A stretch of DNA of 64,000 nucleotides from an uncultured Actinomycetes bacterium (GCA_963742745.1 CAVUND010000018.1:3481-67480), one strand, 5' to 3'. Numbered from the stretch's first letter, positions 6,845-49,470 are shown. Numbers and translations are program-made. Notes: generated by a model from the sequence alone, not told the origin.

Positions 6845-6946
6845 CAGATCAGATCACGCTACCGCAAGAGGTTGCGCAAACCGCCCCTCAGTTAATGAAC
6901 GTCCCCCCGCGCGACTTCCGGCCGCCGGCACAGCGGACGGTTTCCG

Positions 6947-7610: not shown

Positions 7611-8468
7611 CTACAGCTCGCGCACGTCGGCGCCCTGCGGCTCGAACGGCGCGCGCAGCACGTCGGCCCAGCCCTCGGCCTCGCCGCGCAGGCGCCCGAC
7701 GACGGCGCCGGTCGCGTCGGCCTGCGTCCAGAACAGCACGGTCGGACCGGCGCCGGAGATCGTCGCCCCGATCGCCCCGAACTCGCGCGCGCGCTTGAGC
7801 AGTGCCATCGACTTGGGAAAGAGGTGCGCGCGGTAGGGCTGATGCAGCCGGTCATCCAGCCCGCGGCCGATGAGGCTGAAGTCGGCGGTCGCGAGGCCGA
7901 GCGTGAGCACCGAGGCGCGGGCGACGTTGGCGACGGCGTCGGCCATCGGCACCTGCTCGGGTAGCGCCTTGCGCGCCACCGCCGTGCGCACCGCCGCGCG
8001 CGGCACGACGATCACCGCCTCCAACCCGTCGGGCGGCTCGAAGCGCGCGACCTCGTGGCCGGTGACGATCACGAAGCCGCCCAGCAGTGCCGCCGCGGCG
8101 TTGTCGGGGTGACCCTCCAGCTCGGCGACGTGGCCGAGCAGGTCCTCCTGCAGCTCGAACATGTGCGAGGCGGCCAACACGCCGGCCGTGTACGCCGCGG
8201 CGCTCGAGCCCAGGCCGCCCGACAGGGGCACGTCGGAGCGGATGCGGAAGGTGAAGCGGTCGGGCGGGTGTAGCCGCGCGAAGCCGCGCACGCAGAGGTT
8301 GCGCCGGTCGCGCGCGATGTCGAGCTTCGTGTCCACGCCGAAACGGCCGGTCTCGACGACCTCGAGCTCGACGTGCAGCGCCAGCGCGGCCGCAAACGCG
8401 TCGAAGCCGGGACCGAGGTTCGCCGACGACGCCGGCACCCGGACGAGCCGGCGGCGCTTGACGGTCAC
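7611..8468 (-). CDS. thrB: Homoserine kinase
   Basis: GTG at 8468 is in a GTGA overlap with the thrC stop. Motifs: [21 protein letters not shown] ... [17 protein letters not shown] ... [13 protein letters not shown] ... [12 protein letters not shown]. The 443-aa track ORF is 5'-overextended. Confidence 0.9.
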
Positions 8469-9463
8469 CCGAGCACGGCCTCCTCGACGGCGGCGAGCGT
8501 CGGCTCGCACGGGATCACGCCGCCGGCCTGGTTGAGCGCCGTCTCGGGGTCCTTCAGCCCGTGGCCGGTGAGCACGCAGGCCACGCGCGCGCAGCCGTCG
8601 GCGCCGTAGCGCAGCAGCCCGGCGACCGACGCCGCGCTGGCCGGCTCGCAGAAGACGCCCTCGCGCTTGGCGAGCAGGTTGTAGGCGCCGAGGATCTCCG
8701 CGTCGGAGACCGCCCGCACCATGCCGCGCGAGGCGGTCATCGCCTCCATCGCCTCCTCCCAGCGCGCCGGGTTGCCGATCCGGATGGCGCTGGCGATCGT
8801 TTCCGGGCTGTCGACGCGTTTGCCGAGCACGAGCGGCGCGGCGCCCTCGGCCTGGAAGCCGAACAGCCGCGGCGTGACACCGTCCTCGACGAACCCCTTG
8901 TGGTAGGCGGTGATGTTGCCGGCGTTGCCGACCGGGATGCACAGCGCGTCGAGTCCACCAAGCTGCTCGACGATCTCGAAGGACGCCGTCTTCTGACCCT
9001 CCAGCCGGTACTGGTTGACGGAGTTGACGAGCGCGATCGGCTGGCGCTCGGTGAGGGCGCGCACGAGCGTCAGCGCCTGGTCGAAGTTGCCGCGCAGGGC
9101 GATCACGCGCGCGCCGTGCATGAGCGCCTGGGCGAGCTTGCCCTGGGCGATCTTGCCCTCGGGCACGATCACCGCGCAGGTCAGGCCGGCGCGGGCGGCG
9201 TAGGCGGCGGCGCTCGCGGCGGTGTTGCCGGTCGAGGCGCAGATCACGGCCTTGGCGCCCTCGCGCACCGCGGCGCTGACGGCGCAGGTCATCCCGCGGT
9301 CCTTGAAGGAGCCCGTCGGGTTCAGGCCCTCGAGCTTCAGCCAGACCTCGGCCTCGACGAGCTCGGAGATGTGCGGCGCGTGGACGAGCGGCGTCGTGCC
9401 CTCGCCGAGCGAGACGACGGGATCCTCGGCGGCGAAGGGCAGGCGCTCGCGGTAGCGCTCCAT
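8465..9463 (-). CDS. thrC: Threonine synthase
   Basis: Motifs: [10 protein letters not shown] ... [11 protein letters not shown] ... [15 protein letters not shown] (PLP lysine) ... [18 protein letters not shown] at 9463 has AGGA 3 nt upstream. An alternative GTG lies at 9475. Confidence 0.92.
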
Positions 9464-9488
9464 CAGTCCTGACACGACGGAGACCCTA

Positions 9489-9523
9489 CTCGTGGGCGCG
9501 GGCTCGTTGCCCGCGCCGACGAG
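9489..9523 (-). terminator. GC-rich hairpin between the lipoprotein gene and thrC (candidate U-tract-less terminator or insulator)
   Basis: On the minus strand the sequence is CTCGT-C-GGCGCGGGC aacga GCCCGCGCC-C-ACGAG. That gives a 9-bp perfect core plus 5 further bp across a C/C mismatch, with no U run following. Confidence 0.35.
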
Positions 9524-9542
9524 GGGCCCGTCGCGCTTCGCG

Positions 9543-10388
9543 TCAGGTGGTGACGAAGAACCCGAGGTTCTGCGCGAATCCGCAGCCCAGCGCCTTGGCC
9601 TTGGCGACGATGAGGTTGTTGGCGGTCATCGCATCCTTGATCTCCTGCGCGCTGCCGGCGGCGTCGAGCACGTCGCCGTTGTCGTTGAGCTGGCGGTTGA
9701 GCGCGCTGCAGCGCTTCTCCTTGATGAACGAGCGGCTCTCGGGCGGCGCGCTCGGGCTCTCCTTGACGCCCACGAGCCCCTGTTCCTCGGCGGTCAGCGG
9801 CGGGCTCGAGACGCCGGTCGTCGTCGCCTTGGACTTGCCGCCCGCCTCGTCGGAAGTCTGGATGCCCTTCAGCTCGAGCGTGTCGCTGACGACCCAGCCA
9901 CGCGTGACGCCCTTGACCCGCTCGCGGAAGTAGCCACCGACCTTCGTGGGTTCGAGCGCGAAATCGTCGCTGACGTCGCCGCTCTTGACGCTGGCGCTGG
10001 TCGGCGCGTCGCCCGACAGCGTCAGGTCGACCGTGCCGTCGCCCTTGACGGCCTTCAGCGTGGCGCTGTCGGCGCCGTCCTCGATCGTGCCCGAGAACGC
10101 CCGGCCCAGCGTCCTTCCGTCGCAGAGGTACGCCACGACGTCGCCATCGCCGGCGACCGTCACCGCGAGTCCGTAGTCCTTGCCTGCCTCGGTGTCGACG
10201 AAGCGCGCGAGATGCGCCGGGTACTCCTCGCCGAGCGTCGGGATCTGCGCGAGCAGGGCGCTGCCGGAGGCAGCCGCGGCGACCGGGGTGGGATTGTCCT
10301 CGCCGCCGCAGGCGGCCAGGCCGGTGCCCAGCGCAAGCGCGGCGATGACGACCGCGCGCGCGGGCCGGTGGATGACTGGGATGAGCAT
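9543..10388 (-). CDS. Lipoprotein of unknown family (paralog 1)
   Basis: ATG at 10388 is preceded by TAGGAGAACCC, so the SD overlaps the GMC stop. Signal with lipobox: [27 protein letters not shown]. About 65 percent identical by eye to the product of 14963-15805 over the first 210 or so residues. Confidence 0.75.
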
Positions 10389-10396
10389 GGGTTCTC

Positions 10397-11938
10397 CTAT
10401 GGGGTTGGGACAGGGACGACGGGGGTGACGCCTGAGCGCCCGGCCGCGGCGGCGCCGGCCAGAAGCTGCGCTGCGCGCTCGGCGACGAGGTGGACGGCGC
10501 ACTGGGGGTGCGCGCGTGGCAGCGTCGGCAGCACCGACGCGTCGACGACGCGCAGCCCGGCGAGGCCGTGGACGCGCAGCGCGGGGTCGACGACGGCAAG
10601 CGCGTCGGCGCCCATCCGGCAGGTGCCGACCGGGTGGTAGAGCGTCTGCGCGACCTGTCGCAACGCGGCGCCGATCTCCGCGTCGGTCTGCGCGCCGGCC
10701 GTCGGGCCCAGCTCGGCGACGTCGCCGAACGCCAGCAGCGCCGGATGGGCGGCGATCCTGCGGGCCAGCCCCAGCCCGTGGGCGAGAACGCGCACGTCGG
10801 CCGGGTCGGTGAGGTAGCCGGGACGGATCGCCGGCTCGACGTCGGCCTGCGGGGCGACGAGCGCGACCTGGCCGCGGCTACCCGGCGCCAGCGCGATGAG
10901 CCCGATGCTGAAGCCGTGCCGCGCCGGCGGCTCGCGCCCCTCGGCGGTCCAGGCGACCGGCGCGAACAACAGCTCGAGGTCCGGGCCGTCGAGCGCGCGG
11001 TGTGTGCGCTCGAACGCGACGGCCTCGGCGACGTTGGAGGTGAGCATCCCGCGGCGGGCGAGCACGAAGCGCGCCACCTCGCGCGGTGACTGCGCCGCCA
11101 TGAGCGACACGGGCGCGCGGCAGCCGAAGACGATCGGGCAGAGCGGATGGTCGACGAGGCCCTGACCGACGCCGGGCAGCGCATGGCGGACGCGCACGCC
11201 GTGGGCGCGGAGGTGCTCGGCGGGGCCGATCCCGCTGCGCTGCAGCAGGTGCGGCGTACCGATCGCCCCCGCGCTCACCACAACCTCGCGGCGCGCGCGC
11301 ACCTCGACGCGACGGCCGCCGTGGCGGTAGACGAGGCCGCCGACGCGCCGCTCGCCGGACCAGTGCAGGTCGAGGACGAGCGCGTCGCTGCGCACGACGA
11401 GGTTCGCGCGGCGCCGGGCGGGACGCAGGTAGGCATCGGCGGCGCTGAAGCGGCGCCCGCCGCGCTGGGTGACGTGCGCGAGGCCGGCCTCGGGCATCGC
11501 GCGCAGGAACGCCCGCGTCATCGGGTTGGGGTCACGCAACGGCGCGATCGCCAGCGTCGACTCGACGCGCGCGAGCAGCGGCGCCAGCGCGTCGGCGCCC
11601 CACTCCGGGCCCGCCTCGTCGGCCCACGCGGCGAAGTCCGACGGGTGCGGCCGCGTGTGGACCATCGCGTTCATCGAGGTGCAGCCGCCGAGCATCCGCC
11701 CGCGGGGAAAGAAGACGCGCCGGCCGCCGAGCCCTGCCTGCGGCGCCGTCTCGTAGGCCCAGTCGCGCGACGTGCCAAACAGCTTCGGGAACGCCGCGGG
11801 CAGGCGAATTTCGGGCCGGCGGTCGTGCGGGCCGGCCTCGAGCAGCAGCACCCGCACGGCCGGGTCCTCGCTCAGCCGGGCGGCCAGCGTGCAGCCGGCG
11901 GCGCCCGCGCCGACGATGATGAAGTCGAACTCGTCCAT
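10397..11938 (-). CDS. GMC-family FAD oxidoreductase (choline-dehydrogenase-like)
   Basis: ATG at 11938. Motifs: MDEFDFIIVGAGAAGCTLAARLSED (FAD GxGxxG) ... GRMLGGCTSMNAM ... VVVSAGAIGTPHLLQRSGIG ... LYHPVGTCRMG. The 713-aa track ORF is overextended. Confidence 0.88.
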   Translation of the reverse strand: MDEFDFIIVGAGAAGCTLAARLSEDPAVRVLLLEAGPHDRRPEIRLPAAFPKLFGTSRDWAYETAPQAGLGGRRVFFPRGRMLGGCTSMNAMVHTRPHPSDFAAWADEAGPEWGADALAPLLARVESTLAIAPLRDPNPMTRAFLRAMPEAGLAHVTQRGGRRFSAADAYLRPARRRANLVVRSDALVLDLHWSGERRVGGLVYRHGGRRVEVRARREVVVSAGAIGTPHLLQRSGIGPAEHLRAHGVRVRHALPGVGQGLVDHPLCPIVFGCRAPVSLMAAQSPREVARFVLARRGMLTSNVAEAVAFERTHRALDGPDLELLFAPVAWTAEGREPPARHGFSIGLIALAPGSRGQVALVAPQADVEPAIRPGYLTDPADVRVLAHGLGLARRIAAHPALLAFGDVAELGPTAGAQTDAEIGAALRQVAQTLYHPVGTCRMGADALAVVDPALRVHGLAGLRVVDASVLPTLPRAHPQCAVHLVAERAAQLLAGAAAAGRSGVTPVVPVPTP

Positions 11939-11973
11939 GGCGGCGATGCTCGCCTGCCGCGGACGGCGCGTCG

Positions 11974-14844
11974 CTAGGCGCCCCCTCCCAGGGTTTCGTC
12001 CTGGGATCCCGTCAGGCCGAGCGCGGCGGCGAGCTCCGTGCGCGCGGTCACGTCGAGCTTGCGGTAGATGTTGCGCAGGTGCCACTGCACCGCCTTGGGC
12101 GTCACGAACAGGCGCTGGGCGATCTCGCGGTTCGTCAGTCCCTCGGCCGCCAGCACCGCAACGCGGTCCTCGCCGGCGGTCAGCGCCTCGCGCCCGCTCA
12201 GCAGCCGGCGCTCGCGGCGTGGGCGCGCCCCCGCCGTGACGAGCTCGGCGTGGGCGCGGTCGGCCAGAGCGCTCGCCCCGGCCCGCGCCGTGAGATCCAG
12301 CGCGGCGCGCAGGACGTCGCGCGCCTCGCCGCGCCGGCCGTCGCGGCGCAGCGCCATGCCGAGCTCGAGCGTCGAGCGCGCGTGCTCCAGGCGCCCTTCG
12401 GCTCCCTCGAGCACGGCGATCGACTCGCGCAGCAACGCGGTCGCGTCGTCGTCGTCGTCGTCGCCGCCGCCGGAGACGGAGCCGAGCGTGCGCAGCGCGG
12501 CACCGATCGCGTCGGGCACGCCGAAGCGGTGCGCCCATTCGAGCTCCTGCTTCGCCAGATCGCGCGCCTCGTCGCGCCGGCCCAGCGCCGCCAGCGCGAG
12601 CGCGGCATCCGCGCGCCAGGCGCAGGCCATCGGGTTGTGGACGATCGCGCCGACGATTCGCCCGGCGTCGCGGGCGTCGGCGAGCGCCGTGACCGCGTCG
12701 CCCTGCGCCAGGCGCAGGCGGCTGCGTGCGCAGAGCAGGAGCGCCAGCGCGAACGAGGGCGGCGCGGCGTCATCGACGAGCCCGCGGCGCAGCAGCTCGT
12801 CGGCCTCGTCGAGCGCGCCGCGCAGGACCAGCGGGCCGACGAGGTGGGCCAGCGTCCAGGCGTACGCCGCCGGCCCGCTGCCCGACTCGACGAGCTCGAG
12901 GCCCAGCCGCGCCTCGGCCTCAGCCCGGCGCACGTCGCCCAGCCGCAGGGAGACGTCGGCGCGCATCACCAGCTGCCAGGAGAGGGTGAGGCGGCTTCCG
13001 CGTCGCGTGGCGGCGGCGAGCGCGTCGTCGTAGAAGCGCCCGGCGCGCACGAGCGCGCCGGCGAACAGCAGCGCGTTGCCGATGCAGCCGCCGACGATGC
13101 TGTTGGGCTCGTCGCCCTGCCACCCGGCGAGCGAGGCCCGCGCGAGGCCCAGCGCGTCCGCCGCCGGCGGCACGGCCGTGACCCGCGCCAGCGCGAGGCA
13201 GGCCAGCGTCGGCGGCTGCAGGCGCGCGCCGGCGGCGAGCTCGGCGAAGCGCCGCTCCCAGCGCGCCCGCGCCGGGGCCGCGACCGTGAAGTCGTTGAGC
13301 GCGATCGTCAGCAGCTCGGCCTCGAGCGCCACGGCGAGCGGCGACTCGAGATCGGCCTGCTCGCGCAGCGCGCCGTCGAGCACGTCGACCGCCGCAGCGA
13401 AGTCGCCGAACGCCGCGAGCGCCCGCCCGAGGTCCAGCGCTGCGGCGGCGCGCACGTCGGTCGTGCGGGTCGCGGCGATCGCGGCGCGCAGGTGCGCCTC
13501 GAAGCGGTCCCGGCGCCGGTCGGTCGCCTCGGCCAGCCCGAGCTCGTGTAGCACCCCGGCCAGATGCGCGGCGGCGGGCGGCTCCTGCAGCGCGCGGTCC
13601 AGGTAGCCGACGGCCGCCTCCGGCGCACCGCGCGCGGCGGCCCGGCGCGCGGCCGCGCGCAGGCGGGCGACGCGGGCGCCGTCGCCGGACGGGGTGACCC
13701 GCAGCAGGTGCGCGGCGACGCGCTCGTCGTCGGCGCCGCCGTCCGCCAACAGCGCGGCGGCCGCGGCGTGCAGCGCGACCCGTTCATGCGCCGCGATCGA
13801 GTCGTAGATCGACGCAGCGACGAGCGGATGCTCGAAGTCGAGCGTCTCCCCGGACGCCAACACGGCGACGGCGGCCAGCGCATCGGCCGCTGCGCCCGCC
13901 ACGTCCTCGCCCAGGCCGGCGAGCTGCGCGGCGTCGGTGAGGCGTGCCGCGGGACCGAGCACCGCAACCGCCCGTGCGAGGGCCGCCGCCTCCGGGCCGA
14001 GCGCGCGCAGCCGCCGGCGGACGGAGCGAGCGACGCGCTCGCTGCCGAAGGCGACCACCCGCTCGGCGTCGGCGTCGGTGCCGGCGGCGCCGTCGGACGA
14101 CAGCTCGCCGACGAGCTCCCCGAGCAGGAATGGGTTGCCGCCGGTGGCGCGATGACAGGCGGCGGTGAACGCGTCGGTGGCCGCGCCGAGCCGCGAGCGC
14201 ACGAGCTGCGCCGTCGCCTCGGCAGTGAGGGCGGGGAGCCGCAGGACGGTCGGCGCCGCCACCGCGAGCGCGTCGAGCAGCGCCTGATCGGCGCCGGGCT
14301 CGCGCGGGCGCATCGCCCCCACGAGCGCGAGCGGAAGCTCCTCGAGACGCTCCGCGAGCAGGACGAGAAAGCGCAAGGACGCGGCGTCGGCCCACTGCAG
14401 GTCGTCGGCGACGATCGCGAGGGGCCCGCGCGCCGCCAGATCCCCGACGAGCCACTCGAGCGCGCGCAAGGTCCCGAACCCCGCCGCGTCACCCGCCGCC
14501 GTCGTGGCCGCCTCGTCGAGCAGCACCGGCCGCGCGGCCTCGGCGCCGGCGCTCCACAGCCGCGGGTCCTCGGCGACCGCACGCGCCAGCAGCTGACGGA
14601 CGACCCCGAAGCCGAACGGCCGCTCGAGCTCCGAGCCGCGTCCGCGCAGGATCGTGAAGCCCGCCTCGCCGGCGCGTTGGGCGGCGAGCCGCAGCAGCCG
14701 TGTCTTGCCAACCCCTGCCTGCGCCTCGACCAACACCGTCGCGCCGCGACCGGTCTTCACGTCGCGCAGCAGCGCGTCTACGACCGCGAGCTCGCGCTCG
14801 CGCTCGAACAGCAGCCCGCTCGCAGGTTCGACGCCGGCCGGCAC
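11974..14844 (-). CDS. Large ATP-binding LuxR-family (LAL/MalT-like) transcriptional regulator, copy 1
   Basis: Start placed at GTG 14844 (GGGAGGG 7 nt upstream) by alignment with copy 2. Walker A is VEAQAGVGKTRLL. A long helical/TPR-like middle region follows. C-terminal LuxR HTH: LTAGEDRVAVLAAEGLTNREIAQRLFVTPKAVQWHLRNIYRKLDV. Confidence 0.85.
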   Translation of the reverse strand: MPAGVEPASGLLFERERELAVVDALLRDVKTGRGATVLVEAQAGVGKTRLLRLAAQRAGEAGFTILRGRGSELERPFGFGVVRQLLARAVAEDPRLWSAGAEAARPVLLDEAATTAAGDAAGFGTLRALEWLVGDLAARGPLAIVADDLQWADAASLRFLVLLAERLEELPLALVGAMRPREPGADQALLDALAVAAPTVLRLPALTAEATAQLVRSRLGAATDAFTAACHRATGGNPFLLGELVGELSSDGAAGTDADAERVVAFGSERVARSVRRRLRALGPEAAALARAVAVLGPAARLTDAAQLAGLGEDVAGAAADALAAVAVLASGETLDFEHPLVAASIYDSIAAHERVALHAAAAALLADGGADDERVAAHLLRVTPSGDGARVARLRAAARRAAARGAPEAAVGYLDRALQEPPAAAHLAGVLHELGLAEATDRRRDRFEAHLRAAIAATRTTDVRAAAALDLGRALAAFGDFAAAVDVLDGALREQADLESPLAVALEAELLTIALNDFTVAAPARARWERRFAELAAGARLQPPTLACLALARVTAVPPAADALGLARASLAGWQGDEPNSIVGGCIGNALLFAGALVRAGRFYDDALAAATRRGSRLTLSWQLVMRADVSLRLGDVRRAEAEARLGLELVESGSGPAAYAWTLAHLVGPLVLRGALDEADELLRRGLVDDAAPPSFALALLLCARSRLRLAQGDAVTALADARDAGRIVGAIVHNPMACAWRADAALALAALGRRDEARDLAKQELEWAHRFGVPDAIGAALRTLGSVSGGGDDDDDDATALLRESIAVLEGAEGRLEHARSTLELGMALRRDGRRGEARDVLRAALDLTARAGASALADRAHAELVTAGARPRRERRLLSGREALTAGEDRVAVLAAEGLTNREIAQRLFVTPKAVQWHLRNIYRKLDVTARTELAAALGLTGSQDETLGGGA
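12445..12462 (-). repeat. (GTC)6 microsatellite followed by (GCC)3, encoding the GGGDDDDDD linker in LAL copy 1
   Basis: Read directly from the sequence: gtcgtcgtcgtcgtcgtc gccgccgcc. Confidence 0.9.
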
Positions 14845-14962
14845 CCGGCAACCCTCCCACAGCGGAGTCTCCGCACGATCCGCACGAACGCGCTTGAGCC
14901 GTGATGCGAATCCTGCGGCGGGCGCGGCATCGCTGCCGCGCCCCCCGCCGTCGTGCTCGAGA

Positions 14963-15805
14963 TCAATCGATGACGAAGCTGTCTCTCCCGTCGTCGTTCG
15001 TCCAGCTGCACCCCAGCGATCGCCCCTTCGCCAGCGCGAGGTTGACCGCGTTGGCATCGGCGGTCGTCCCAGAGGGGGAGATCCAGCTGTCGAAGGAGCT
15101 GTCGTACTGGTTTCGGAGCGCGTTGCAGCGACGGTTCTTGAAGAACGCCTGAGTCTGCGGTGGAGCGTTCGGGTCCTCCTGCACGCCGACGAGCGCCTGG
15201 TCGGAGGGGCTCAGCGGCGGGCTGGACACACCGGTCGTCGTCGCCTTGGACTTGCCGCCCGCCTCGTCGGACGTCTGTACGCCCTTGAGCTCCAGCGCGT
15301 CGCTGACGACCCAGCCACGCGTGACGCCCTCGACCTGCTCACGGAAGTAGCCACCCACCTTCGTCGGTGCGAGCGCGAAGTCGTCGGTCACGGCGCCGGC
15401 CTTGACCGCGGCGCGGCGGGGCGTGTCGCCGGACAGCTCCAGGTCGACAGTGCCGGCGCCCTTGACGGCGTTTAGGGTGGCGCTGTCCGCGCCGTCCTCG
15501 ATCGAGCCCGCGAAGGCGCGGCCGAGCGTCTTGCCGTCGCAGAGGTAGGCGACGGCCTTACCGTCATCGGCGATCGTCACCGCGAGGCCGTAGTCCTTGC
15601 CCTCGTCGGTGTCGACGAAGCGGGCGAGCTGTGCCGGGTACTCCTCGCCGAGCGTGGGTATCTGCTCCAGCAGCGCGCTGCTGGCGGGGGCCGAGATCGG
15701 CGTTGCGTCGTCGTCGCCGCCACACGCGGACAGCACGGCGGCCGACAGCAGGACGACCATGGAGGCCGTGGCCAGCCCGAACATCGACTGCACGAACTTC
15801 AGCAT
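14963..15805 (-). CDS. Lipoprotein of unknown family (paralog 2)
   Basis: Signal with lipobox: MLKFVQSMFGLATASMVVLLSAAVLSAC. Shares with paralog 1 the stretches [103 protein letters not shown] and a C-terminal RC...LGC cysteine pair. Confidence 0.75.
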   Translation of the reverse strand: MLKFVQSMFGLATASMVVLLSAAVLSACGGDDDATPISAPASSALLEQIPTLGEEYPAQLARFVDTDEGKDYGLAVTIADDGKAVAYLCDGKTLGRAFAGSIEDGADSATLNAVKGAGTVDLELSGDTPRRAAVKAGAVTDDFALAPTKVGGYFREQVEGVTRGWVVSDALELKGVQTSDEAGGKSKATTTGVSSPPLSPSDQALVGVQEDPNAPPQTQAFFKNRRCNALRNQYDSSFDSWISPSGTTADANAVNLALAKGRSLGCSWTNDDGRDSFVID

Positions 15806-16248
15806 GACGACACCAGGTTGAAGCCGGCGCCGTCGGCGGGCTTGCCGTCGGGGTCGCGGACCACGACGCGGATGACCTTGTCGGCCGGCATGTACGTGGT
15901 GATGAAGCCGTAGAACTCGTTGTCGGCGGTGCCGCGCACGGTGGCCACACCCGCGCAGGGCTGCACGCTGCGGTTGAACGTCACGTGGAAGTCGCCGGGG
16001 CCGACGTGCTTGACGTTGGTCGCGTGGCGTCCGGCCAGCAGCGAGCCCGCGGCGTCGACCTTGGCGAACCAGGGCTTGAGCTGCTGGCGGTAGGTGACGT
16101 GCACGTCGGCTTCGCGAATCGTGCCGTCCTTGATCTGCGTGCTCGTGACGAGGCTTGCGGCGGTCGCGCTGCCGGCGCCGGCCACGAAGGCGACGACGCC
16201 GGCGATGACGACGGTCCGCAGCCGAGGGGTGAAGCGGTTGGGTCGCAT
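15799..16248 (-). CDS. Small secreted protein, unknown function
   Basis: ATG at 16248 is preceded by AGGAGCCCC. Signal peptide: MRPNRFTPRLRTVVIAGVVAFVAGAGSATAASL. Its stop overlaps the start of the paralog-2 lipoprotein gene by 7 nt (ATGCTGA). Confidence 0.6.
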   Translation of the reverse strand: MRPNRFTPRLRTVVIAGVVAFVAGAGSATAASLVTSTQIKDGTIREADVHVTYRQQLKPWFAKVDAAGSLLAGRHATNVKHVGPGDFHVTFNRSVQPCAGVATVRGTADNEFYGFITTYMPADKVIRVVVRDPDGKPADGAGFNLVSSC

Positions 16249-16405
16249 GGGGCTCCTGTCGGGGGGCGGTGGGCTGATGCGTTCGACCCTCCCTGGGGGC
16301 GCATGCGTTCGCGTCGGGGAACCTCCCTGAACCTCACCGGCGGCCTCCCCCCGGTTCGTGCGCATCACCCTTGCTCCGTGATGCCCGTCGCGGGTAGCGT
16401 GCGGC

Positions 16406-19264
16406 GTGGACTCATTCGCCGGTAGGGCCGGGAGCGATCTCCTGGAGCGCGAATCCGAGACGGCCGCGCTGACGGCCCTGCTCGATCTGGCCTGCGCCGG
16501 CACGGGCCGCGTCGCCCTCATCGAGGGCCCGCCCGGCATCGGAAAGAGCGCGTTGCTGGAGTGCACCAAGCGGCTCGCGCCTGAGCGCGGCATGCGTGTC
16601 CTCGCCGCCCGCGGCGGCGCGCTGGAGCGCGACTTCTCGTTCGGCGTGGTGCGCCAGCTCTTCGAGCCGTTCGTCACCGCCGACGCGCTCGTCGCGCGGG
16701 GCCGGCTGTTCGAGGGCGCCGCGGGGATCGCCGCGGAGTTGCTGGGCGCGCAGCCGCCGGCCGGCGCGCAGCCGCCGAGCGGCGAGCTGTTCGCCCTGTT
16801 GCACGGCCTGCACTGGCTGACCGCGGGGATCGCCGCCGACGGCCCGCTGCTCATCGCGCTCGACGACGCGCACTGGATCGACGTGCCGTCGCTGCGCTAC
16901 GCGCAGTACCTCGCCCGCCGACTCGACGAGCTGCCCGTGCTGCTCGTCCTGACCGCGCGATCGACCGAGCCCGACGCCCCGCTGGAGCTCATCGACGCGA
17001 TCGCCGGCGAGCCGGTGACGAGCACGATCCGTCCCGGGCCGCTCAGCCCCACCGCGGCCGGCGACGTCCTGCGCGAGCTGTTCGCCACGGAGCCCGACGC
17101 GGAGTTCGTACGCACCTCGCACGAGGCCAGCCGCGGCAACCCGTTCCTGCTCACCGAGCTCGCCCGCGCGCTCGCTGCCGACGGCGCGGCGCCCGACAGC
17201 GCGGCGTCGGCGAGCATCCGCAACGTCCGACCGGAGGCGATCACGCGCAAGGCGCTCGTCCGTCTCGGCCACCTGGCGGTCGCCGACCAGCGCGTGGCGC
17301 GCGCGGTCGCGACGCTCGGCGACGACACCGCCCTGCGCCACGTCGCCGCCCTCGCCGAGCTCTCCGAGGACGAATCCGCCGATGCGGTCGACCGCCTCGC
17401 CGCGGCGGGCTTCCTCAACCCCGGGCGGCCGCTGCGCTTCACCCATCCGCTCATGCGCGCGGTGATCTACGACGACCTCGGACCTGCCCAGCGCGCCCGT
17501 CTGCACGGCCGCGCGGCGACGATGCTCGCCGCCGAGCCGGCCCGCCCGGAGCGGGTCGCCGCGCACCTGCTCTGGACCGAGCCGGTCGCCGACCCCGAGG
17601 CCGTCGGCTGGCTGCGGCGGGCCGCCGCCGAGGCCCTGCGCCAGGGTGCCGCGGAGACGGCGGTCGGTTATCTGCGGCGCGCGCTGGCCGAGCCGCCGGC
17701 GGCCGCCGACCATGCGGCGATTCTGCTCGAGCTCGGCCGCGCGGAGTCGGCGGCCGCGCTGCCCGAAGCGGCTGACCATCTGCTGCAGGCGTTCGCGCTC
17801 GCCACCGACCCTGCGATGCGCGGCGACGTCGCCGAGGCCGCCGGGCCGTTTCTGCTCTCCGCCGGCCGCACCACCGAGACGCTCGAGCTGCTCGACACGG
17901 TCATCGGCGAGCTGGCGGGACAGGATCCCGAGCGCGCACTGCAGCTCGAGTCCCAGTATGTCGCCGCGGCCATGCTCGATCCGGCCGCGGTGCAGCACGC
18001 GGTCGTGCGCTTCGAGCGTGTCGGCGAGCAGCTCGCCGGCGACACGCGCGGCGAGCGGATGATGCTCTGCCAGCTCGCCTATCACCGGATGTGGCGCTCA
18101 GAGGACGCCGCCCAGGCCGCGGCCCTCGCTCTGCGCGCCCTCGCCGGCGGCCGGCTGATCGCCGATCGCGGCGTCGTGCCGTACGAGCTGACCGGGCCCG
18201 CGATGGCGCTCATCTGCGCCGACGAACACCACGACGCGGGCGCGATGCTCGACGAAGCGGCGACCGCCGCCCGCCGGCACGGCTCCGAGCACGCGTTCTC
18301 ATGGGTCTGCTCCGCGCGCGGGAAGCTCGCCCACCGCCGCGGCGCGATCGGCGAGGCGGTCAGCGAGATGCGAGTGGCGCTCGAGGTGACGCTGCGCTCG
18401 GGCTTGCTGCTCGGCAGCGCGTTCAACGGCGGCGTCCTCATCGCCGCGCTCCTGGAGACGGGTCAGCTCGACGAGGCGCAGACGTGCCTGGAACAGATCG
18501 GACTCGACCGTGCGCCGATCCCACCGCCGGCGCCGTTCACGATCCTGCTCGCCGCGCGCGGCCGGCTGCGCCTCGCGCAGGGCGACGTCGCCTCGGGGAT
18601 CGCCGATCTCGAGGAGTGCGGCCGGCGCACGGCCGTCTTCGGCGCGAGGAACCCCGTCCTGTTCCCGTGGCGCGGCGCGCTGATGTTGGCGCTGCGCGAG
18701 CGCGGCGAGCTCGCGGCGGCGCAGGCACTTGCCGCGGAGGAACTCGCCGCCGCGCGCTCGTGGGGGACCCCCGGGGCGCTCGGCGGGGCCGAGCGGCTCG
18801 TCGCGCTGCTCAGCGACGACAGCGACGCGATGATCGCCGGGCTCGGCCGGTCCGCCGAGCTGCTGGCGGCGTCGCCCGCGCGCCTGGAACACGCAGGGGC
18901 GCTCGCCGACCTCGGCGCGGCGCAGCGGCGCGCCAACCGCCGCAGCGAGGCGCGCGAAACGCTGCGCGAGGCACTCGACCTGGCGCAGCGCTGCGGCGCG
19001 ACCGTGCTCGCCGAGCAGGCACGCAACGACCTGCTGGCGACCGGCGCGCGCCCCCGCCGGCTACAGCTGCGCGGCGTCGACTCGCTCACCGCGAGCGAGC
19101 GGCGGATCGCCGACCTCGCCGCCGCGGGGTTGTCGAACCCCGAGATCGCGCAGTCGCTGTTCGTCACGCGAAAGACGGTCGAGACGCACCTCGGGCGGGC
19201 GTACTCCAAGCTCGACATCCGCTCGCGCAAGGAGCTCCCGGCGGCGCTCGCGGCGCAGGACTGA
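16406..19264 (+). CDS. Large ATP-binding LuxR-family (LAL/MalT-like) transcriptional regulator, copy 2
   Basis: Walker A is IEGPPGIGKSALL. Long helical middle region. C-terminal HTH: LTASERRIADLAAAGLSNPEIAQSLFVTRKTVETHLGRAYSKLDI. It lies divergent to the 16248 operon. Confidence 0.88.
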   Translation: MDSFAGRAGSDLLERESETAALTALLDLACAGTGRVALIEGPPGIGKSALLECTKRLAPERGMRVLAARGGALERDFSFGVVRQLFEPFVTADALVARGRLFEGAAGIAAELLGAQPPAGAQPPSGELFALLHGLHWLTAGIAADGPLLIALDDAHWIDVPSLRYAQYLARRLDELPVLLVLTARSTEPDAPLELIDAIAGEPVTSTIRPGPLSPTAAGDVLRELFATEPDAEFVRTSHEASRGNPFLLTELARALAADGAAPDSAASASIRNVRPEAITRKALVRLGHLAVADQRVARAVATLGDDTALRHVAALAELSEDESADAVDRLAAAGFLNPGRPLRFTHPLMRAVIYDDLGPAQRARLHGRAATMLAAEPARPERVAAHLLWTEPVADPEAVGWLRRAAAEALRQGAAETAVGYLRRALAEPPAAADHAAILLELGRAESAAALPEAADHLLQAFALATDPAMRGDVAEAAGPFLLSAGRTTETLELLDTVIGELAGQDPERALQLESQYVAAAMLDPAAVQHAVVRFERVGEQLAGDTRGERMMLCQLAYHRMWRSEDAAQAAALALRALAGGRLIADRGVVPYELTGPAMALICADEHHDAGAMLDEAATAARRHGSEHAFSWVCSARGKLAHRRGAIGEAVSEMRVALEVTLRSGLLLGSAFNGGVLIAALLETGQLDEAQTCLEQIGLDRAPIPPPAPFTILLAARGRLRLAQGDVASGIADLEECGRRTAVFGARNPVLFPWRGALMLALRERGELAAAQALAAEELAAARSWGTPGALGGAERLVALLSDDSDAMIAGLGRSAELLAASPARLEHAGALADLGAAQRRANRRSEARETLREALDLAQRCGATVLAEQARNDLLATGARPRRLQLRGVDSLTASERRIADLAAAGLSNPEIAQSLFVTRKTVETHLGRAYSKLDIRSRKELPAALAAQD

Positions 19265-19324
19265 GCCCAAAGTTCGGGGTGCCTCCCCGACGCGAGGCCG
19301 GGCCGGGGCGGACATGCTCCGTTC

Positions 19325-19516
19325 ATGCCCACCCGGCTGCAGATCACGATCGACCTCGAGCTGACCCGGCCTGTGAGCGGACGGCTGGCCGTCGCCGGCG
19401 AGCCGGCCGCGCACTTCAGCGGCTGGCTGGAGCTGCACTCCGCGCTCGAGCTGATCTGTGCGTGCGCCGAGGTGCCCCGCAACCCCCACGAAGAGGAGCC
19501 AGTTCGATGTCCGTAG
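19325..19516 (+). CDS. Small hypothetical protein (63 aa)
   Basis: Translation begins MPTRLQITIDLELTRPVSGRLAVAGEPAAHFSGWLELHSALELI... GC3 is high. The 3' end overlaps the next gene's start by 10 nt. No clear SD. Confidence 0.45.
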   Translation: MPTRLQITIDLELTRPVSGRLAVAGEPAAHFSGWLELHSALELICACAEVPRNPHEEEPVRCP

Positions 19517-20364
19517 CCACCGCCGTCCGCGCGGAGCCCGCCCCTGCTGCAGCCGTCAAGGAGATCCCGGCCGCGCAGCGCGTCTTCTTCGTGGTCATCG
19601 CCGTGGCCGCGCTGTTCGTGGCCTACCTCGGCCTCGTCACCCCGGCGAACATGGATCGCTCGTTCACGTGGGCGGTCCTGCCGCCGCTGCATGCCGGCTT
19701 CGTGGGGATGCTCTACCTCTTCGGCGGCGTCTTCATGGTCGGCTGCGTGCTGGCCCGGCGCCGGTCGCAGGTGTCCGGTGCGCTGCCGGCGATCGCGCTC
19801 TTCACGAGCCTGCTGCTGCTGGCCACCGTCCTGAACTCCGAGGCGTTTGACTTCGATCTGGCCCCCGTCTGGGTCTGGACGCTCTCGTACACGATCTACC
19901 CCGCCATCGCCGTGCTGCTGATCTGGCGGGCACGGGCCCACCGCCCCGCGGACGCCGGCGCCGGCGCCGGCGCGCTGCCGTCCTGGGCGCGCACGTTCCT
20001 GCAGGCGCAGGCCGTCGTCTTCGCGCTCGTCGGCCTGGCGTTGCTCATCGCGCCGTCCGCGATGGTCGACGCCTGGCCGTGGCCGATCTCGGCCGGCCTG
20101 GCCCAGTTCTATGGCGGCCCGTTCCTCGCCTACGCGGTATGCAGCCGGCACTACGCCGGCAAGCCGGCGTGGGCCGATCTGGCGGCGATCGTGCCGGCGA
20201 TGCTCGTCTTCACAAGCGGAACGATCGTCGTGTCGCTGCAGCACAGCGAGCTGTTCTCGAGTTCCGACCTCGCCGCCTGGGTCTGGTTCGGCGGCTTCGG
20301 AGCAGCGGCGGCCATGCTGCTCGTCACGACCGTCCGGGCGCTCAGACGAACTCCTCGTCGATGA
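19507..20364 (+). CDS. Polytopic membrane protein (about 8 TM), unknown function
   Basis: ATG at 19507 has GAGGAG 8 nt upstream. Repeated hydrophobic segments include FFVVIAVAALFVAYLGLV, FVGMLYLFGGVFMVGCVLA and ALPAIALFTSLLLLATVL. The 757-aa track ORF is overextended. Confidence 0.65.
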   Translation: MSVATAVRAEPAPAAAVKEIPAAQRVFFVVIAVAALFVAYLGLVTPANMDRSFTWAVLPPLHAGFVGMLYLFGGVFMVGCVLARRRSQVSGALPAIALFTSLLLLATVLNSEAFDFDLAPVWVWTLSYTIYPAIAVLLIWRARAHRPADAGAGAGALPSWARTFLQAQAVVFALVGLALLIAPSAMVDAWPWPISAGLAQFYGGPFLAYAVCSRHYAGKPAWADLAAIVPAMLVFTSGTIVVSLQHSELFSSSDLAAWVWFGGFGAAAAMLLVTTVRALRRTPRR

Positions 20365-21592
20365 CACGGATCGCCCGCGGCGGCGAGCGCAGGAAGTCCA
20401 GCCCGGCGATCTCGTCGACGGCGGCGAAGAACTGCGACTCGAGTACGGGATGCACGACCATCACGAGGCGTGCCTTCTCGCCCAGGCCCTTCTGCACGAC
20501 CGACTTGATCGAGGCGCCGTGCTCGCCGAGCACGAGCGCGACCTGCGCGAGCACGCCCGGCCGGTCGGCGACCTCCATGTGCAGGTAGAAGGAGCACTCG
20601 ACGTCATCGATGATCTCCAGCGCCTGTGTCGTCTCGGGCGTCGAGGCGGGCGGGATCATCGCGCTGACGACATCGCCGAGCACGGCGCTCGCCGTCTGCG
20701 GTCCGCCGGCGCCGGGTCCCGACATCGTGATCTCCGTGATCGCCGCGGACTCGACCGTGACCGCGTTGAACGGCCCGTGCACGCTGGCCAGCGGATGGCC
20801 GGAGTACAGAAACGCGGGATGAACGCGCACGGCGAGCTTGCCGTCGATCCGCTCGGCCGTCCCGATGAGCTTCAGGCCGAGGCGCAGCTCGTGGGCGTAC
20901 TCCATGTCGTCGGCGGTGATCTGCTCGATGCCCTCATAGGTGACCTGGTCGATGTGGACCGGGGTGTCGAAGGCCAGCCGCGCGATGATCGCCATCTTCG
21001 CGGCCGCGTCCTTGCCGTTGACGTCCTCGGTCGGGTCGGCCTCGGCGTAGCCCAGCCGCTGCGCGTCGGCGAGCGCGTCGCCGTAGGAGCAGCCGGTGCG
21101 GGCCATCTCGGAGAGGATGTAGTTCGTCGTGCCATTGACGATGCCGTGCACGCGGTCGACGTGGGCGCCCGCCAGCGACTCCTGCAGCACCCGGATGACC
21201 GGCACGACGCCGGCGACCGCGGCCTCGAAGCGCAGTTGCACGCCGTGCTCGCGCGCGGCGCCCCACAGCTCCTCGCCGTGCTGGCTGAGCAGCTGCTTGT
21301 TGGCCGTCACGACGTGGCGGCCCGCGCGCATCGCCCGCAGCACGTACTCGCGCGCCGGCTCGAGGCCGCCGATGAGTTCGACGACGAGGTCGCAGCCCGC
21401 GAGGATCTCGTCGAAGTCACCGCGCGAGCGCGTGAGGATGCCGCTGATCTGCGGCCGCAGGCCGGTGATCGCGGCGACGTGCTCGGCGCGCTGCTCCAGC
21501 AGGGTCTCGAATGCCGCGCCGACGGTGCCGTGGCCGAGCAGACCGATCGTGAAACTCGCGCCCGGGCGCGGCGGCTGCGGTTCAGTCGACAT
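20342..21592 (-). CDS. hom: Homoserine dehydrogenase with C-terminal ACT domain
   Basis: Motifs: IGLLGHGTVGAAF ... VVTANKQLL ... FEAAVAGVVPVI ... IVNGTTNYILSEM ... AQRLGYAEADPTEDVNGKDAAAKMAI. Confidence 0.93.
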   Translation of the reverse strand: MSTEPQPPRPGASFTIGLLGHGTVGAAFETLLEQRAEHVAAITGLRPQISGILTRSRGDFDEILAGCDLVVELIGGLEPAREYVLRAMRAGRHVVTANKQLLSQHGEELWGAAREHGVQLRFEAAVAGVVPVIRVLQESLAGAHVDRVHGIVNGTTNYILSEMARTGCSYGDALADAQRLGYAEADPTEDVNGKDAAAKMAIIARLAFDTPVHIDQVTYEGIEQITADDMEYAHELRLGLKLIGTAERIDGKLAVRVHPAFLYSGHPLASVHGPFNAVTVESAAITEITMSGPGAGGPQTASAVLGDVVSAMIPPASTPETTQALEIIDDVECSFYLHMEVADRPGVLAQVALVLGEHGASIKSVVQKGLGEKARLVMVVHPVLESQFFAAVDEIAGLDFLRSPPRAIRVIDEEFV

Positions 21593-49379: not shown

Positions 49380-49470
49380 GGAGCGGCCCGGGCCCGGTGG
49401 CCCATCCGGTCTTCAAAACCGGCGGGGCGCGGCACACCGCGCTGGAAGGTTCGACTCCTTCGCCGTTCCG
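49380..49470 (+). tRNA. selC: tRNA-Sec (anticodon TCA)
   Basis: Structure read from the sequence: 8-bp acceptor GGAGCGGC/GCCGTTCC with one G-U pair; D stem GGGCC/GGCCC with a 4-nt loop; anticodon stem CCGGT/ACCGG with loop CT-TCA-AA; long variable arm GCGCGG-CACA-CCGCGC; T arm GAAGG-TTCGACT-CCTTC; discriminator G. No CCA is encoded. Confidence 0.93.

Follow-up and report, generated by a model that had tools for sequence, protein, structure and literature searches.

Gene content of the hom–thrC interval

The DNA stretch analysed here (the window, 64,000 nucleotides) comes from the genome of an uncultured soil Solirubrobacteraceae bacterium, and the island it contains is a set of accessory genes between two genes of the threonine pathway. 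Gene calls based on third-position GC frame analysis and HMM searches agree with a preliminary description of this DNA in which lysA–hom is parted from thrC–thrB by 10.9 kb (9476–20341). The locus comprises the following features.

7611–8468, minus strand: thrB, homoserine kinase (TIGR00191, 181 bits, cut-off 168)
8465–9475, minus strand: thrC, threonine synthase, 336 aa (PALP, 4e-72), right border of the island
9476–9532, minus strand: lipoprotein 1–thrC spacer, with a strong hairpin and then TAGGGT (9483–9488)
9543–10388, minus strand: lipoprotein 1, 281 aa, divergent paralogue, lipobox LAAC
10397–11938, minus strand: GMC-family FAD oxidoreductase, 513 aa, without a signal peptide
11974–14844, minus strand: LAL regulator 1 (LAL1), 956 aa (Pfam AAA_16 3e-19, GerE 3e-12)
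14915–14948, minus strand: GC-rich hairpin after lipoprotein 2, terminator-like, without a U tail (−36.3 kcal/mol, z −3.65)
14963–15805, minus strand: lipoprotein 2, 280 aa, lipobox LSAC
15799–16248, minus strand: 149-aa secreted protein, with a signal peptide whose ATA-AS site was identified by eye
16309–16332, minus strand: box 1, GTTCAGGGAGGTTCCCCGACGCGA, upstream of the 149-aa gene
16406–19264, plus strand: LAL regulator 2 (LAL2), 952 aa (Pfam AAA_16 6e-19, GerE 6e-13)
19272–19295, plus strand: box 2, GTTCGGGGTGCCTCCCCGACGCGA, containing a 17-bp palindrome, upstream of the 63-aa ORF
19325–19516, plus strand: 63-aa ORF, conserved small protein
19507–20364, plus strand: 8-TM membrane protein, 285 aa (from hydropathy)
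20342–21592, minus strand: hom, homoserine dehydrogenase (Homoserine_dh, NAD_binding_3 and ACT), left border of the island
21582–22847, minus strand: lysA, diaminopimelate decarboxylase (TIGR01048, 420 bits, cut-off 298)

Eight genes, not the nine first reported, lie between hom and thrC; the earlier list itself totals eight, and the spacers within the island (35–157 nt) are too small for a ninth. At the left border hom and the convergent 8-TM gene share 23 nt at their 3′ ends, and at the right border thrC begins with GTG, as it does in relatives. The tiny gaps and overlaps described among the genes running in the direction of thrC are borne out: the TAG stop codon of the GMC gene lies inside an AGGAG Shine–Dalgarno sequence, lipoprotein 1 starts 8 nt after the GMC gene, and the start of lipoprotein 2 overlaps the 149-aa gene by 7 nt (ATGCTGA). 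On the other strand, the stop of the 63-aa ORF overlaps the 8-TM start by 10 nt.

Profile, tRNA and repeat searches likewise agree with the earlier statement that no integrase, tRNA or flanking repeat marks the borders. Pfam and NCBIfam searches of the window proteins gave no integrase domain, and the sole tRNA in the window is a tRNA-Sec at 49380, outside the island; Rfam, run on both the window and the island, returned nothing else. A repeat search found no border repeats; the only long repeats in the window are the lipoprotein-gene pair (300 nt, 82%) and the LAL-gene pair, both due to paralogy. GC3 is about equal inside and outside, at 0.88–0.94 in the island genes and 0.94–0.97 in the flanks. 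The sequence is 73% GC, and a generic sigma-70 and terminator scan is uninformative there; a search for transcript coverage returned only soil DNA metagenomes (5–9% of words shared) and no RNA.

The hom–thrC junction across Solirubrobacterales

Eighty species-representative loci of Solirubrobacterales were fetched around hom, 78 of which contain both hom and thrC. The two genes are separated by ≤100 nt in 50 of these 78 loci and by >400 nt in 25. The junction inserts in 25 of the 78 loci belong to unrelated families; they include SDR and Zn-ADH proteins (the latter in 10 loci), a peptidoglycan-binding protein, a PQQ propeller, GSDH, MpaB/Lcp, a SHOCT protein and membrane proteins. An insertion sequence (HTH_38 and rve) lies at the junction in locus L003, and a PIN toxin–antitoxin pair in L086. 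The hom–thrC junction is a recurrent insertion site in Solirubrobacterales.

The island had been described as splitting an otherwise contiguous lysA–hom–thrC–thrB block, and the short gaps in 50 of the 78 loci support this. A five-gene core of the island, defined below, was found at the junction in none of the 80 species-representative loci, searched within 10 kb of hom; these include loci with hom 90–94% identical to that of the window (L004–L006, L010 and L016). The synteny comparison proposed with the preliminary description thus did not find the same genes throughout the order.

Two layers of gene gain

The island is not a single unit, as had been supposed, since five of its genes are common to L001, L002, L003 and L086, and three were seen only in the window. 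The five form a core in which LAL2, the 63-aa ORF and the 8-TM gene stand on one side and face the 149-aa gene and lipoprotein 2. The same five genes occur in the same order and at the same site in L001, L002 and L003, with hom and thrC 91–93% and 93–96% identical, respectively, to those of the window. In L086 the core copy at the junction has decayed, with the LAL gene truncated, the 149-aa gene lost and the lipoprotein deprived of its signal peptide. The remaining genes, LAL1, the GMC gene and lipoprotein 1, form an add-on adjoining thrC.

In a phylogenetic tree, the core bearers fall within one shallow subclade. Their strict monophyly was recovered in 24 of 100 bootstrap replicates, and L005, which is without the module, nests among the bearers, reflecting either loss of the module or poor tree resolution. 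Together, these comparisons show that the core was acquired within a shallow subclade, that the copy of one member is already in decay, and that the add-on, as a second layer, entered the lineage of the window only. The island is a real, lineage-specific, two-layer insertion without mobility genes or repeats.

LAL1 possesses Walker A (AQAGVGKT) and Walker B (AIVADD) motifs, a TPR region and a GerE HTH. No orthologue of it was found in any compared locus, where the only matches, at 40%, fall on LAL2 orthologues. The GMC protein matches PF00732 (GMC_oxred_N, 2.6e-39) and PF05199 (GMC_oxred_C, 3.3e-35) in full and has an N-terminal GxGxxG FAD motif. Its best PDB match is an alcohol oxidase (8rpg, 5e-104), and it scores below the equivalog cut-offs of both BetA (353 versus 732 bits) and MftG (244 versus 387). 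The compared loci hold no orthologue of the GMC protein or of lipoprotein 1, and a metagenome scan for close GMC relatives yielded only 29–40% identity and no LAL–GMC–lipoprotein unit elsewhere. In a gene tree, lipoprotein 1 falls outside the clade that unites all hom–thrC-linked lipoproteins, and sliding-window identity of the lipoprotein genes to their orthologues gave no clear recombination crossover. The notion of a duplicated unit of LAL regulator plus lipoprotein is therefore overstated: the two LALs are 40% identical and the two lipoproteins 67%, their arrangements differ, and lipoprotein 1 stands outside the orthologous clade. A palindrome upstream of LAL1, GCGGAGTCTCCGC, was considered as a second operator but is given here for the record only, a 13-mer at ≤1 mismatch being expected 2.8 times by chance.

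A palindromic box at the predicted promoters of the core

Both outward-reading gene pairs of the core are preceded by a 24-nt box. Box 1 lies 17 nt upstream of a −10-like GAGGGT (16286–16291); a 37-nt leader containing an AGGAG Shine–Dalgarno sequence then leads to the 149-aa gene. Box 2 lies 17 nt upstream of a −10-like CATGCT (19313–19318), which ends 6 nt before the ATG of the 63-aa ORF. The window contains exactly 2 matches to the box, against 0.01 expected, and none falls in the add-on. The box is conserved in relatives: each of the 11 matches in 1.79 Mb of compared sequence precedes a gene of the 149-aa or ORF63/8-TM family and has an ANNNT hexamer 17–18 nt downstream. The 8-1-8 palindrome is perfect in L089 and matches at 7/8 and 6/8 in the window. 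RNA folding of the box regions is unremarkable (box 2, z −0.26).

A LAL gene adjoins the box in the window, in L001–L003 and, truncated, in L086. At a different chromosomal site, L089 has two boxes in a divergent 149-aa/8-TM promoter region, flanked by a two-component system and a LysR gene. The two boxes of the window suggest one regulon, probably under LAL2, with the box as candidate operator. The assignment of LAL2 as binder is less secure because L089 has boxes but no LAL gene within 10 kb of them.

LAL regulators are large ATP-binding members of the LuxR family, ~900–1000 aa long, with a Walker A/B NTPase and a LuxR/GerE HTH (PMC9942304); LAL1 and LAL2 both have the length, the Walker A/B domain and the C-terminal HTH. 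LAL2 consists of an N-terminal AAA_16 NTPase, a helical middle and a C-terminal LuxR/GerE HTH, and its Walker A (GPPGIGKS) and Walker B (LIALDD) motifs, read from the translation, are intact. Its orthologues in L001–L003 are 88–89% identical. The LAL HTH (GerE, residues ~887–944) matches the DNA-binding domains of the NarL, VraR and GerE structures.

Membrane and exported products

The 63-aa protein has no Pfam match even at E 10; its sequence is conserved in L001, L002, L003 and L086, and by eye many of the nucleotide changes in its ORF fall at third codon positions. The 8-TM protein has seven clear hydrophobic segments and one weak one. Among its ~100 homologues, none has a Pfam domain, and a PDB sequence search with the family profile gave no match. 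Sub-threshold matches to DoxX_2 occur in 12 of 39 family members (best E 2e-4); the protein of the window itself matches neither DoxX nor DoxX_2, below threshold included. Elsewhere, an 8-TM homologue is paired with a LAL gene and no box in L090, and the 8-TM gene stands by itself in L104.

The 149-aa protein has at least 70 homologues, none with a Pfam domain, and Cys98 and the C-terminal Cys149 are invariant in the family. AlphaFold2 models it with a beta-sandwich domain (mean pLDDT 77; 87–96 in blocks from residue 61 onward), and the best Foldseek match of this model to the PDB (E 0.011, TM 0.41) is not significant. Lipoprotein 2 is the orthologue of the single lipoprotein of the relatives, being 70–75% identical to those of L001–L003. 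Its AlphaFold2 model (pLDDT 79) comprises a beta domain at residues ~60–178 and a C-terminal helical hairpin, with a best Foldseek match to the PDB at E 0.012 and TM 0.16. Neither lipoprotein belongs to a Pfam or NCBIfam family, and matches of the lipoprotein family to APT are sub-threshold only (7 of 54 members). Apart from such sub-threshold matches, Pfam, NCBIfam and PADLOC gave no result for the lipoproteins or for the 149-aa, 63-aa and 8-TM proteins, including searches at E 10 and scans of all family members. A lipobox, L-[AS]-[GA]-C, is present in both and, by eye, conserved across the family alignment; a search of 5.8 billion proteins yielded just 17 close relatives of the family. The structure prediction and fold search recommended earlier for lipoprotein 2 and the 149-aa protein thus gave no significant PDB fold, and by the Pfam and NCBIfam searches the lipoproteins match no well-characterized family.

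The hairpin after lipoprotein 2 also follows the lipoprotein gene in an alignment with L001. In L084 and L085, lipoprotein and 149-aa genes are again neighbours, though in reversed order, and have an alpha/beta hydrolase and another LuxR-type regulator next to them. Stable partnerships of this kind, of the lipoprotein with the 149-aa protein and of the latter with the 8-TM protein through a common promoter box, had escaped the preliminary description.

A predicted promoter of thrC

The spacer between lipoprotein 1 and thrC contains a hairpin of −44.1 kcal/mol (z −4.15), and its TAGGGT ends 7 nt before the GTG of thrC. The same hexamer precedes the thrC start by 6–8 nt in the window and in 16 compared loci, namely 15 close relatives with a hom–thrC spacer and the distant L071, and is missing wherever hom and thrC abut. 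In mycobacteria, a −10 box of the form ANNNT/TANNNT lies at −13 to −6 and leaderless mRNAs are frequent (PMC6448022).

In this clade, thrC probably has its own TAGGGT −10 box and does not depend on hom. Read-through from the island is probably not how thrC is expressed, because the strong hairpin and the conserved TAGGGT −10 box lie directly upstream; since the hairpin precedes TAGGGT in the window, threonine synthesis should not need such read-through. The position of TAGGGT would give a leaderless mRNA, with thrC–thrB as a separate transcription unit, and the junction may tolerate insertions because thrC–thrB forms a unit of its own.

Interpretation and alternative explanations

Taken as a whole, the locus is on balance probably best explained as a two-layer accessory set whose core is one regulon with products at the envelope. 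The presence of the box at the predicted promoters of both 149-aa/lipoprotein and 63-aa/8-TM would make the core a single regulon. The box extends into the −35 region, as class II activator sites typically do, and the likeliest binder would be a dimer of the LuxR-type HTH of LAL2, which, as a predicted STAND-type ATPase, would switch on upon sensing a small ligand. The products may act at the cell envelope, which is the weakest step of the scheme. There, the lipoprotein would be paired extracytoplasmically with the secreted beta-sandwich protein, the 8-TM protein, possibly DoxX-like, would be their membrane partner, and the add-on would couple a second lipoprotein to a cytoplasmic FAD oxidoreductase of the alcohol/choline type under a LAL regulator of its own.

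Lipoboxes, a signal peptide, conserved cysteines and the adjacency of lipoprotein and 149-aa genes in L084 and L085 point toward an envelope role; the DoxX_2 and APT matches are all sub-threshold. On this reading the island would be an inducible cell-envelope module. The partnerships are not universal, as the LAL-free boxes of L089, the boxless LAL and 8-TM genes of L090 and the solitary 8-TM gene of L104 indicate. A bolder proposal, which we think unlikely, is that the box, LAL2, lipoprotein, 149-aa and 8-TM proteins constitute an undescribed ligand-responsive envelope module of Solirubrobacterales, in which the exported pair (lipoprotein and 149-aa protein) would be a portable extracytoplasmic unit repeatedly joined to a LuxR-type sensor-regulator and an interchangeable enzyme (GMC here, an alpha/beta hydrolase in L084).

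Several other histories of the locus were weighed against a two-layer gain. It is highly improbable that the genes are old residents of the order, lost in other lineages: five of the eight do occupy this site in four related contigs and the decay in L086 shows that losses occur, but 50 of 78 loci from across the order have hom next to thrC, no core lies at the junction in the 80 loci, those with hom 90–94% identical included, and the lipoprotein family is small (17 close members). A classical mobile genomic island, or the remnant of an integrative element, would account for the lineage-specific distribution at a junction that draws mobile DNA elsewhere (the insertion sequence of L003 and the PIN toxin–antitoxin pair of L086). 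We consider it quite unlikely: the cargo, regulators and envelope proteins, lacks genes for mobility or transfer, the left border is a convergent overlap with hom, GC3 is as in the flanks, and no integrase, transposase, tRNA or flanking repeat is present. Slightly more doubtful still would be a recent tandem duplication of a LAL plus lipoprotein unit, as the presence of two of each, and the alignment of both lipoprotein genes with the single one of L002, might lead one to expect; against it stand the identities of the pairs (40% for the LALs, 67% for the lipoproteins), the divergent orientation of LAL2 relative to its operon where LAL1 is co-directional with a GMC gene between, the absence of a box from the add-on, and the position of lipoprotein 1 as sister to the whole orthologous clade rather than to lipoprotein 2. 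An assembly artefact, with the add-on a chimera created at the repeated lipoprotein gene, has very little to commend it. The source is apparently a 78-kb metagenome-type contig and no add-on orthologue was found in the compared loci or the metagenome GMC scan, but at 82% identity over 300 nt the two lipoprotein genes are too different to be collapsed or mis-joined by an assembler, GC3 is uniform, and both junctions look native, with the hairpin after lipoprotein 2 matched in L001 and the lipoprotein 1–thrC spacer in L002 and L086.

Other readings concern function. The box might instead be part of a promoter read by an alternative sigma factor, such as one of the ECF type, or be bound by an unlinked regulator, with LAL2 controlling something else. 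This is possible if doubtful: L089 carries two boxes beside a two-component system and LysR gene with no LAL nearby, and the box comes within 17 nt of a −10-like hexamer, covering the −35 position, whereas an 8-1-8 palindrome points away from a sigma factor and toward a dimeric HTH protein, and a LAL gene adjoins the box in the window and four related contigs. It would be surprising if the island were a STAND-NTPase anti-phage defence system or if its LALs were cluster-situated regulators of a biosynthetic gene cluster. AAA_16/STAND ATPases do occur in defence systems, and LALs are best known from polyketide clusters, some with a cholesterol-oxidase gene (PMC9942304). PADLOC, on the other hand, matches only the LAL HTH segment (a CARF-HTH model) and none of the other six proteins, the neighbourhood is without effector domain, PKS, NRPS or tailoring genes, and the flanks are primary metabolism.

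The locus offers a concrete case of a conserved amino-acid biosynthesis array into which genes can be inserted time and again. The hom–thrC joint acts like an operon boundary with a predicted leaderless-type promoter, and 25 of 78 genomes keep unrelated cargo there. Three annotation-free protein families are defined (the lipoprotein, the 149-aa secreted beta-sandwich protein and the 8-TM protein), linked through a 24-nt promoter box and a neighbouring LAL, a candidate regulator–operator pair from Thermoleophilia, a class almost without experimental genetics. Nothing here points to a new biochemical principle, and the value of the locus lies mainly in annotation and hypothesis generation.

Comparison with known systems

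The window has the same genes, in the same order and on the same strand, as the actinobacterial lysA–hom–thrC–thrB array, which corresponds to Rv1293–Rv1296 (with hom as thrA) in Mycobacterium tuberculosis and exists also in Streptomyces. It differs in that hom and thrC stand 10.9 kb apart and in that thrC of this clade has a predicted leaderless-type promoter even where the gap is ~30 nt. Like DoxX proteins, the 8-TM protein is a multi-pass membrane protein, and 12 of 39 relatives match DoxX_2 weakly; it has eight helices instead of four and no conserved partner enzymes. GMC_oxred_N, GMC_oxred_C and the FAD motif are common to the GMC protein and to BetA, alcohol oxidase and MftG, but the gene has no bet or mycofactocin genes nearby and sits 8 nt upstream of a lipoprotein gene. 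MalT-type boxes are asymmetric, whereas the putative LAL2 target is a 17-bp palindrome, and the similarity of the LALs to MalT is confined to the HTH. Although the LAL pair of the window lies outside any secondary-metabolite cluster, it resembles known LAL regulators in size (~950 aa), in its succession of AAA_16, helical/TPR middle and GerE HTH, and in adjoining its presumed targets.

Gene content of the island

Since the window has a GC content of 72.7%, genes were called by third-position GC periodicity, and the calls were checked with profile searches. Eight genes lie between hom and thrC, one fewer than the nine counted in the preliminary description, whose own list also sums to eight. 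The island spacers, at 35-157 nt, are too short for any further gene.

Genes of the island and its flanks, in window coordinates
21582-22847, minus strand, lysA (flank)
20342-21592, minus strand, hom (flank)
19507-20364, plus strand, 8-TM protein (between hom and thrC)
19325-19516, plus strand, 63-aa ORF (between hom and thrC)
16406-19264, plus strand, LAL2, a large ATP-binding LuxR-family regulator (between hom and thrC)
15799-16248, minus strand, 149-aa secreted protein (between hom and thrC)
14963-15805, minus strand, lipoprotein 2 (between hom and thrC)
11974-14844, minus strand, LAL1 (between hom and thrC)
10397-11938, minus strand, GMC oxidoreductase (between hom and thrC)
9543-10388, minus strand, lipoprotein 1 (between hom and thrC)
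8465-9475, minus strand, thrC (flank; GTG start, 336 aa as in relatives)
7611-8468, minus strand, thrB (flank)

The tight coupling described earlier is evident in a 7-nt overlap (ATGCTGA) between the 149-aa gene and lipoprotein 2, and in the lipoprotein 1 Shine-Dalgarno sequence AGGAG, which contains the GMC stop codon TAG. The convergent hom and 8-TM genes overlap by 23 nt (20342-20364; 45 nt in the related contig L001), and therefore have no terminator between them. GC3 is 0.88-0.94 in the island versus 0.94-0.97 in the flanks. In agreement with the preliminary description, the island contains no integrase or tRNA and is bordered by no repeats; long repeats are confined to two paralogous pairs, the LAL genes and the lipoprotein genes (82% over 300 nt for the latter). 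The sole tRNA of the window is a tRNA-Sec at 49380-49470 on the plus strand (anticodon TCA; ARAGORN; Rfam RF01852, 66.7 bits), which implies that the organism can be expected to make selenoproteins.

The hom-thrC junction across the order

With a hom profile, GTDB genomes (one for each species) yielded 80 loci. All belong either to Solirubrobacterales or to unclassified Actinomycetota MAGs, a result that assigns the window to the Solirubrobacteraceae. Window proteins were mapped onto these and three metagenome loci, and 78 loci contain both hom and thrC. The gap between the two genes is at most 100 nt in 50 of the 78, 100-400 nt in 3 and more than 400 nt in 25, while island genes occur at the junction in none of the 80 species representatives. 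Loci L004-L006, L010 and L016, with hom 90-94% identical to that of the window, have a junction free of island genes. An uninterrupted array is therefore the usual state, and the island is specific to its lineage. Synteny across the 78 loci thus bears out the claim of a real insertion, correctly located, that splits lysA-hom-thrC-thrB, and the opposing possibility of an ancestral arrangement, with the same genes throughout the order, does not hold (0/80).

Elsewhere, the cargo at this junction is unrelated both to the window island and from one insert to another, comprising an SDR, a Zn-dependent alcohol dehydrogenase (10 loci), a peptidoglycan-binding protein, a PQQ propeller, a GSDH-type dehydrogenase, an MpaB/Lcp oxygenase, a SHOCT protein and membrane proteins. 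The hom-thrC joint is therefore a recurrent insertion site in Solirubrobacterales. The alcohol dehydrogenase (~330 aa) lies just downstream of hom in ten more distant Solirubrobacterales (L049, L062, L064, L067, L070, L072-L074, L076 and L077). In addition, thrC and thrB are 2.6-5 kb apart in L044, L056 and L061, and both are absent within 10 kb of hom in L019, so the array is held together less strictly in this order than it is in Mycobacterium.

A conserved core and a second layer

A search of 5.8 billion proteins gave just 17 close relatives of the lipoprotein. In three related metagenome contigs that encode such relatives (L001, L002 and L003) the order is lysA-hom, then the 8-TM gene, small ORF and LAL, then the 149-aa and lipoprotein genes, then thrC-thrB. 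Window DNA aligns collinearly with these contigs (~87% identity) between lysA and the 3' end of lipoprotein 2, and collinearity resumes at thrC. A fourth contig (L086, 4412-8401) carries a decayed core, with only 430 aa of the LAL left, the 149-aa gene gone, a lipoprotein without signal peptide, and a PIN toxin with an 86-aa partner inserted beside hom. These comparisons establish an insertion in two layers, with decay of the core at L086.

In a concatenated LysA-Hom-ThrC-ThrB tree, all module bearers fall in one shallow subclade, among which the module-free L005 nests (strict-monophyly bootstrap 24/100); the simplest reading of the core's history would be a single gain with later loss. Gene calling in L002 (6546-9403) splits the LAL2 orthologue into two ORFs of 821 and 137 aa, reflecting either a frameshift or pseudogene or a sequencing error. 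An IS-type transposase (HTH_38 + rve) lies between the lipoprotein gene and thrC in L003 (10847-12010), at the position that LAL1-GMC-lipoprotein 1 occupies in the window.

Among the compared loci, only the window has LAL1, GMC and lipoprotein 1; in the metagenome scan, no relative of the GMC gene exceeded 40% identity. The preliminary description saw a duplicated LAL and lipoprotein unit. The relatives' lipoprotein has its orthologue in lipoprotein 2, at 70-75% identity, and the hairpin that follows this gene also follows its counterpart in L001. Lipoprotein 1, at 67% identity to lipoprotein 2, branches outside the entire orthologous clade, and the two LALs share only 40%; these values and this branching argue strongly against a recent tandem duplication, and the arrangement is composite instead. 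The GMC enzyme may be coupled to lipoprotein 1.

A shared promoter box

Aligning non-coding spacers across relatives identified stretches conserved in all aligned loci. The resulting 24-nt pattern, GTTCRGGGNGNNTCCCCGACGCGA, has exactly two matches in the 64-kb window versus 0.01 expected, and contains a 17-bp palindrome, TCGGGGAG-N-CTCCCCGA.

Box matches in the window
16309-16332, minus strand, Box 1, upstream of the 149-aa gene
19272-19295, plus strand, Box 2, upstream of the 63-aa ORF

A -10-like hexamer follows each box at a distance of 17 nt. For Box 1 it is GAGGGT, after which comes a 37-nt leader containing a Shine-Dalgarno sequence; for Box 2 it is CATGCT, 6 nt before the ATG of the 63-aa ORF. 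At up to 3 mismatches, the box has 11 matches in 1.79 Mb (window and compared loci), all upstream of a 149-aa-family or ORF63/8-TM-family gene and all with an ANNNT hexamer 17-18 nt downstream; that of L086 has 2 mismatches. The box is absent from the add-on genes. As RNA, the box regions show no unusual folding (z -0.26 and +1.6), which favours a role at the DNA level. The pattern suggests that the core forms a single regulon whose activator site is of the class II type.

GerE-type HTH domains are dimeric DNA-binding domains. LAL2 is the most likely binder, given its intact Walker motifs, GerE-type HTH and adjacency to the box, and would activate its target promoters through it. A LAL adjoins the box in the window, L001-L003 and L086 (truncated in the last). 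The main objection comes from L089, where two of the 11 boxes lie in a divergent 149-aa/8-TM promoter region at another chromosomal site, with no LAL within 10 kb and no 63-aa ORF or lipoprotein beside the pair. This pair (5772-7318) adjoins a two-component system and a LysR gene. Separately, a perfect 6-1-6 palindrome, GCGGAGTCTCCGC, lies at 14862-14874, 18 nt upstream of the LAL1 start, with half-sites that match the core of the box associated with LAL2 at all but one base; given its shortness it carries no significance by itself (2.8 expected at up to 1 mismatch).

Probable insulation of thrC-thrB

A TAGGGT hexamer lies 6-8 nt 5' of the thrC start in the window and 16 other loci, namely 15 close relatives with any spacer, even ~30 nt, and the distant L071. 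It is absent where hom and thrC abut or overlap. Several alcohol dehydrogenase-insert loci have CATGCT 7-8 nt before the thrC ATG in its place. In mycobacteria, leaderless mRNAs are common and 79% of promoters have an ANNNT/TANNNT -10 element at -13 to -6 (PMC6448022); this placement points to a predicted leaderless promoter of thrC's own. In the window, a strong hairpin (-44 kcal/mol, z -4.15) lies 5' of the hexamer (9483-9488), and together they suggest that thrC-thrB is probably insulated from the island and self-sufficient. Such an independent promoter would allow the site to tolerate insertions.

Protein families and their partnerships

Both LALs show the sequence features that define the family (PMC9942304), being ~950 aa long with Walker A and B motifs and, at the C terminus, a LuxR HTH. 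The GMC protein has no signal peptide and is a complete GMC oxidoreductase, below the BetA and MftG cut-offs, whose closest solved relative is an alcohol oxidase. The lipoproteins match no well-characterised family: there is no Pfam or NCBIfam model match, and the AlphaFold model (pLDDT 79), in which a disordered linker joins an 11-strand beta domain to a helical hairpin, has no significant PDB neighbour. Some 50 remote relatives, of roughly 210-300 aa and at 20-28% identity, emerged from a full-library profile search; they share AYLCDG and GWVV motifs and a C-terminal cysteine pair. The 149-aa protein has a family of at least 70 small secreted members, in which two cysteines are invariant. 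Its model, a beta sandwich, likewise has no significant PDB neighbour. The 8-TM protein has ~100 homologues in Solirubrobacterales and other Actinomycetota, in varied contexts (beside a LAL in L090, alone in L104), and only sub-threshold DoxX_2 signals. The 63-aa ORF shows conservation of its protein sequence and matches no family. PADLOC found no defence system among the island proteins.

The lipoprotein and 149-aa genes are adjacent in every intact context examined. In L084 and L085 their order is reversed, beside an alpha/beta hydrolase and another LuxR-type regulator, in which GerE is fused to an alpha/beta-hydrolase fold. One database protein (P0016), from an 86-kb contig, fuses the 149-aa C-terminal part to the lipoprotein, consistent with a frameshift or miscall at the 7-nt overlap. 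The constant theme is thus a LuxR-type regulator with an exported pair, the enzyme or membrane partner being variable. The products may act at the cell envelope, and our best guess is an inducible module handling an extracellular small molecule there. Accessory genes inserted at a permissive operon boundary and governed by LAL/LuxR regulators are a familiar kind of arrangement; this variant carries three protein families that lack annotation, along with a regulator-operator hypothesis that can be tested.
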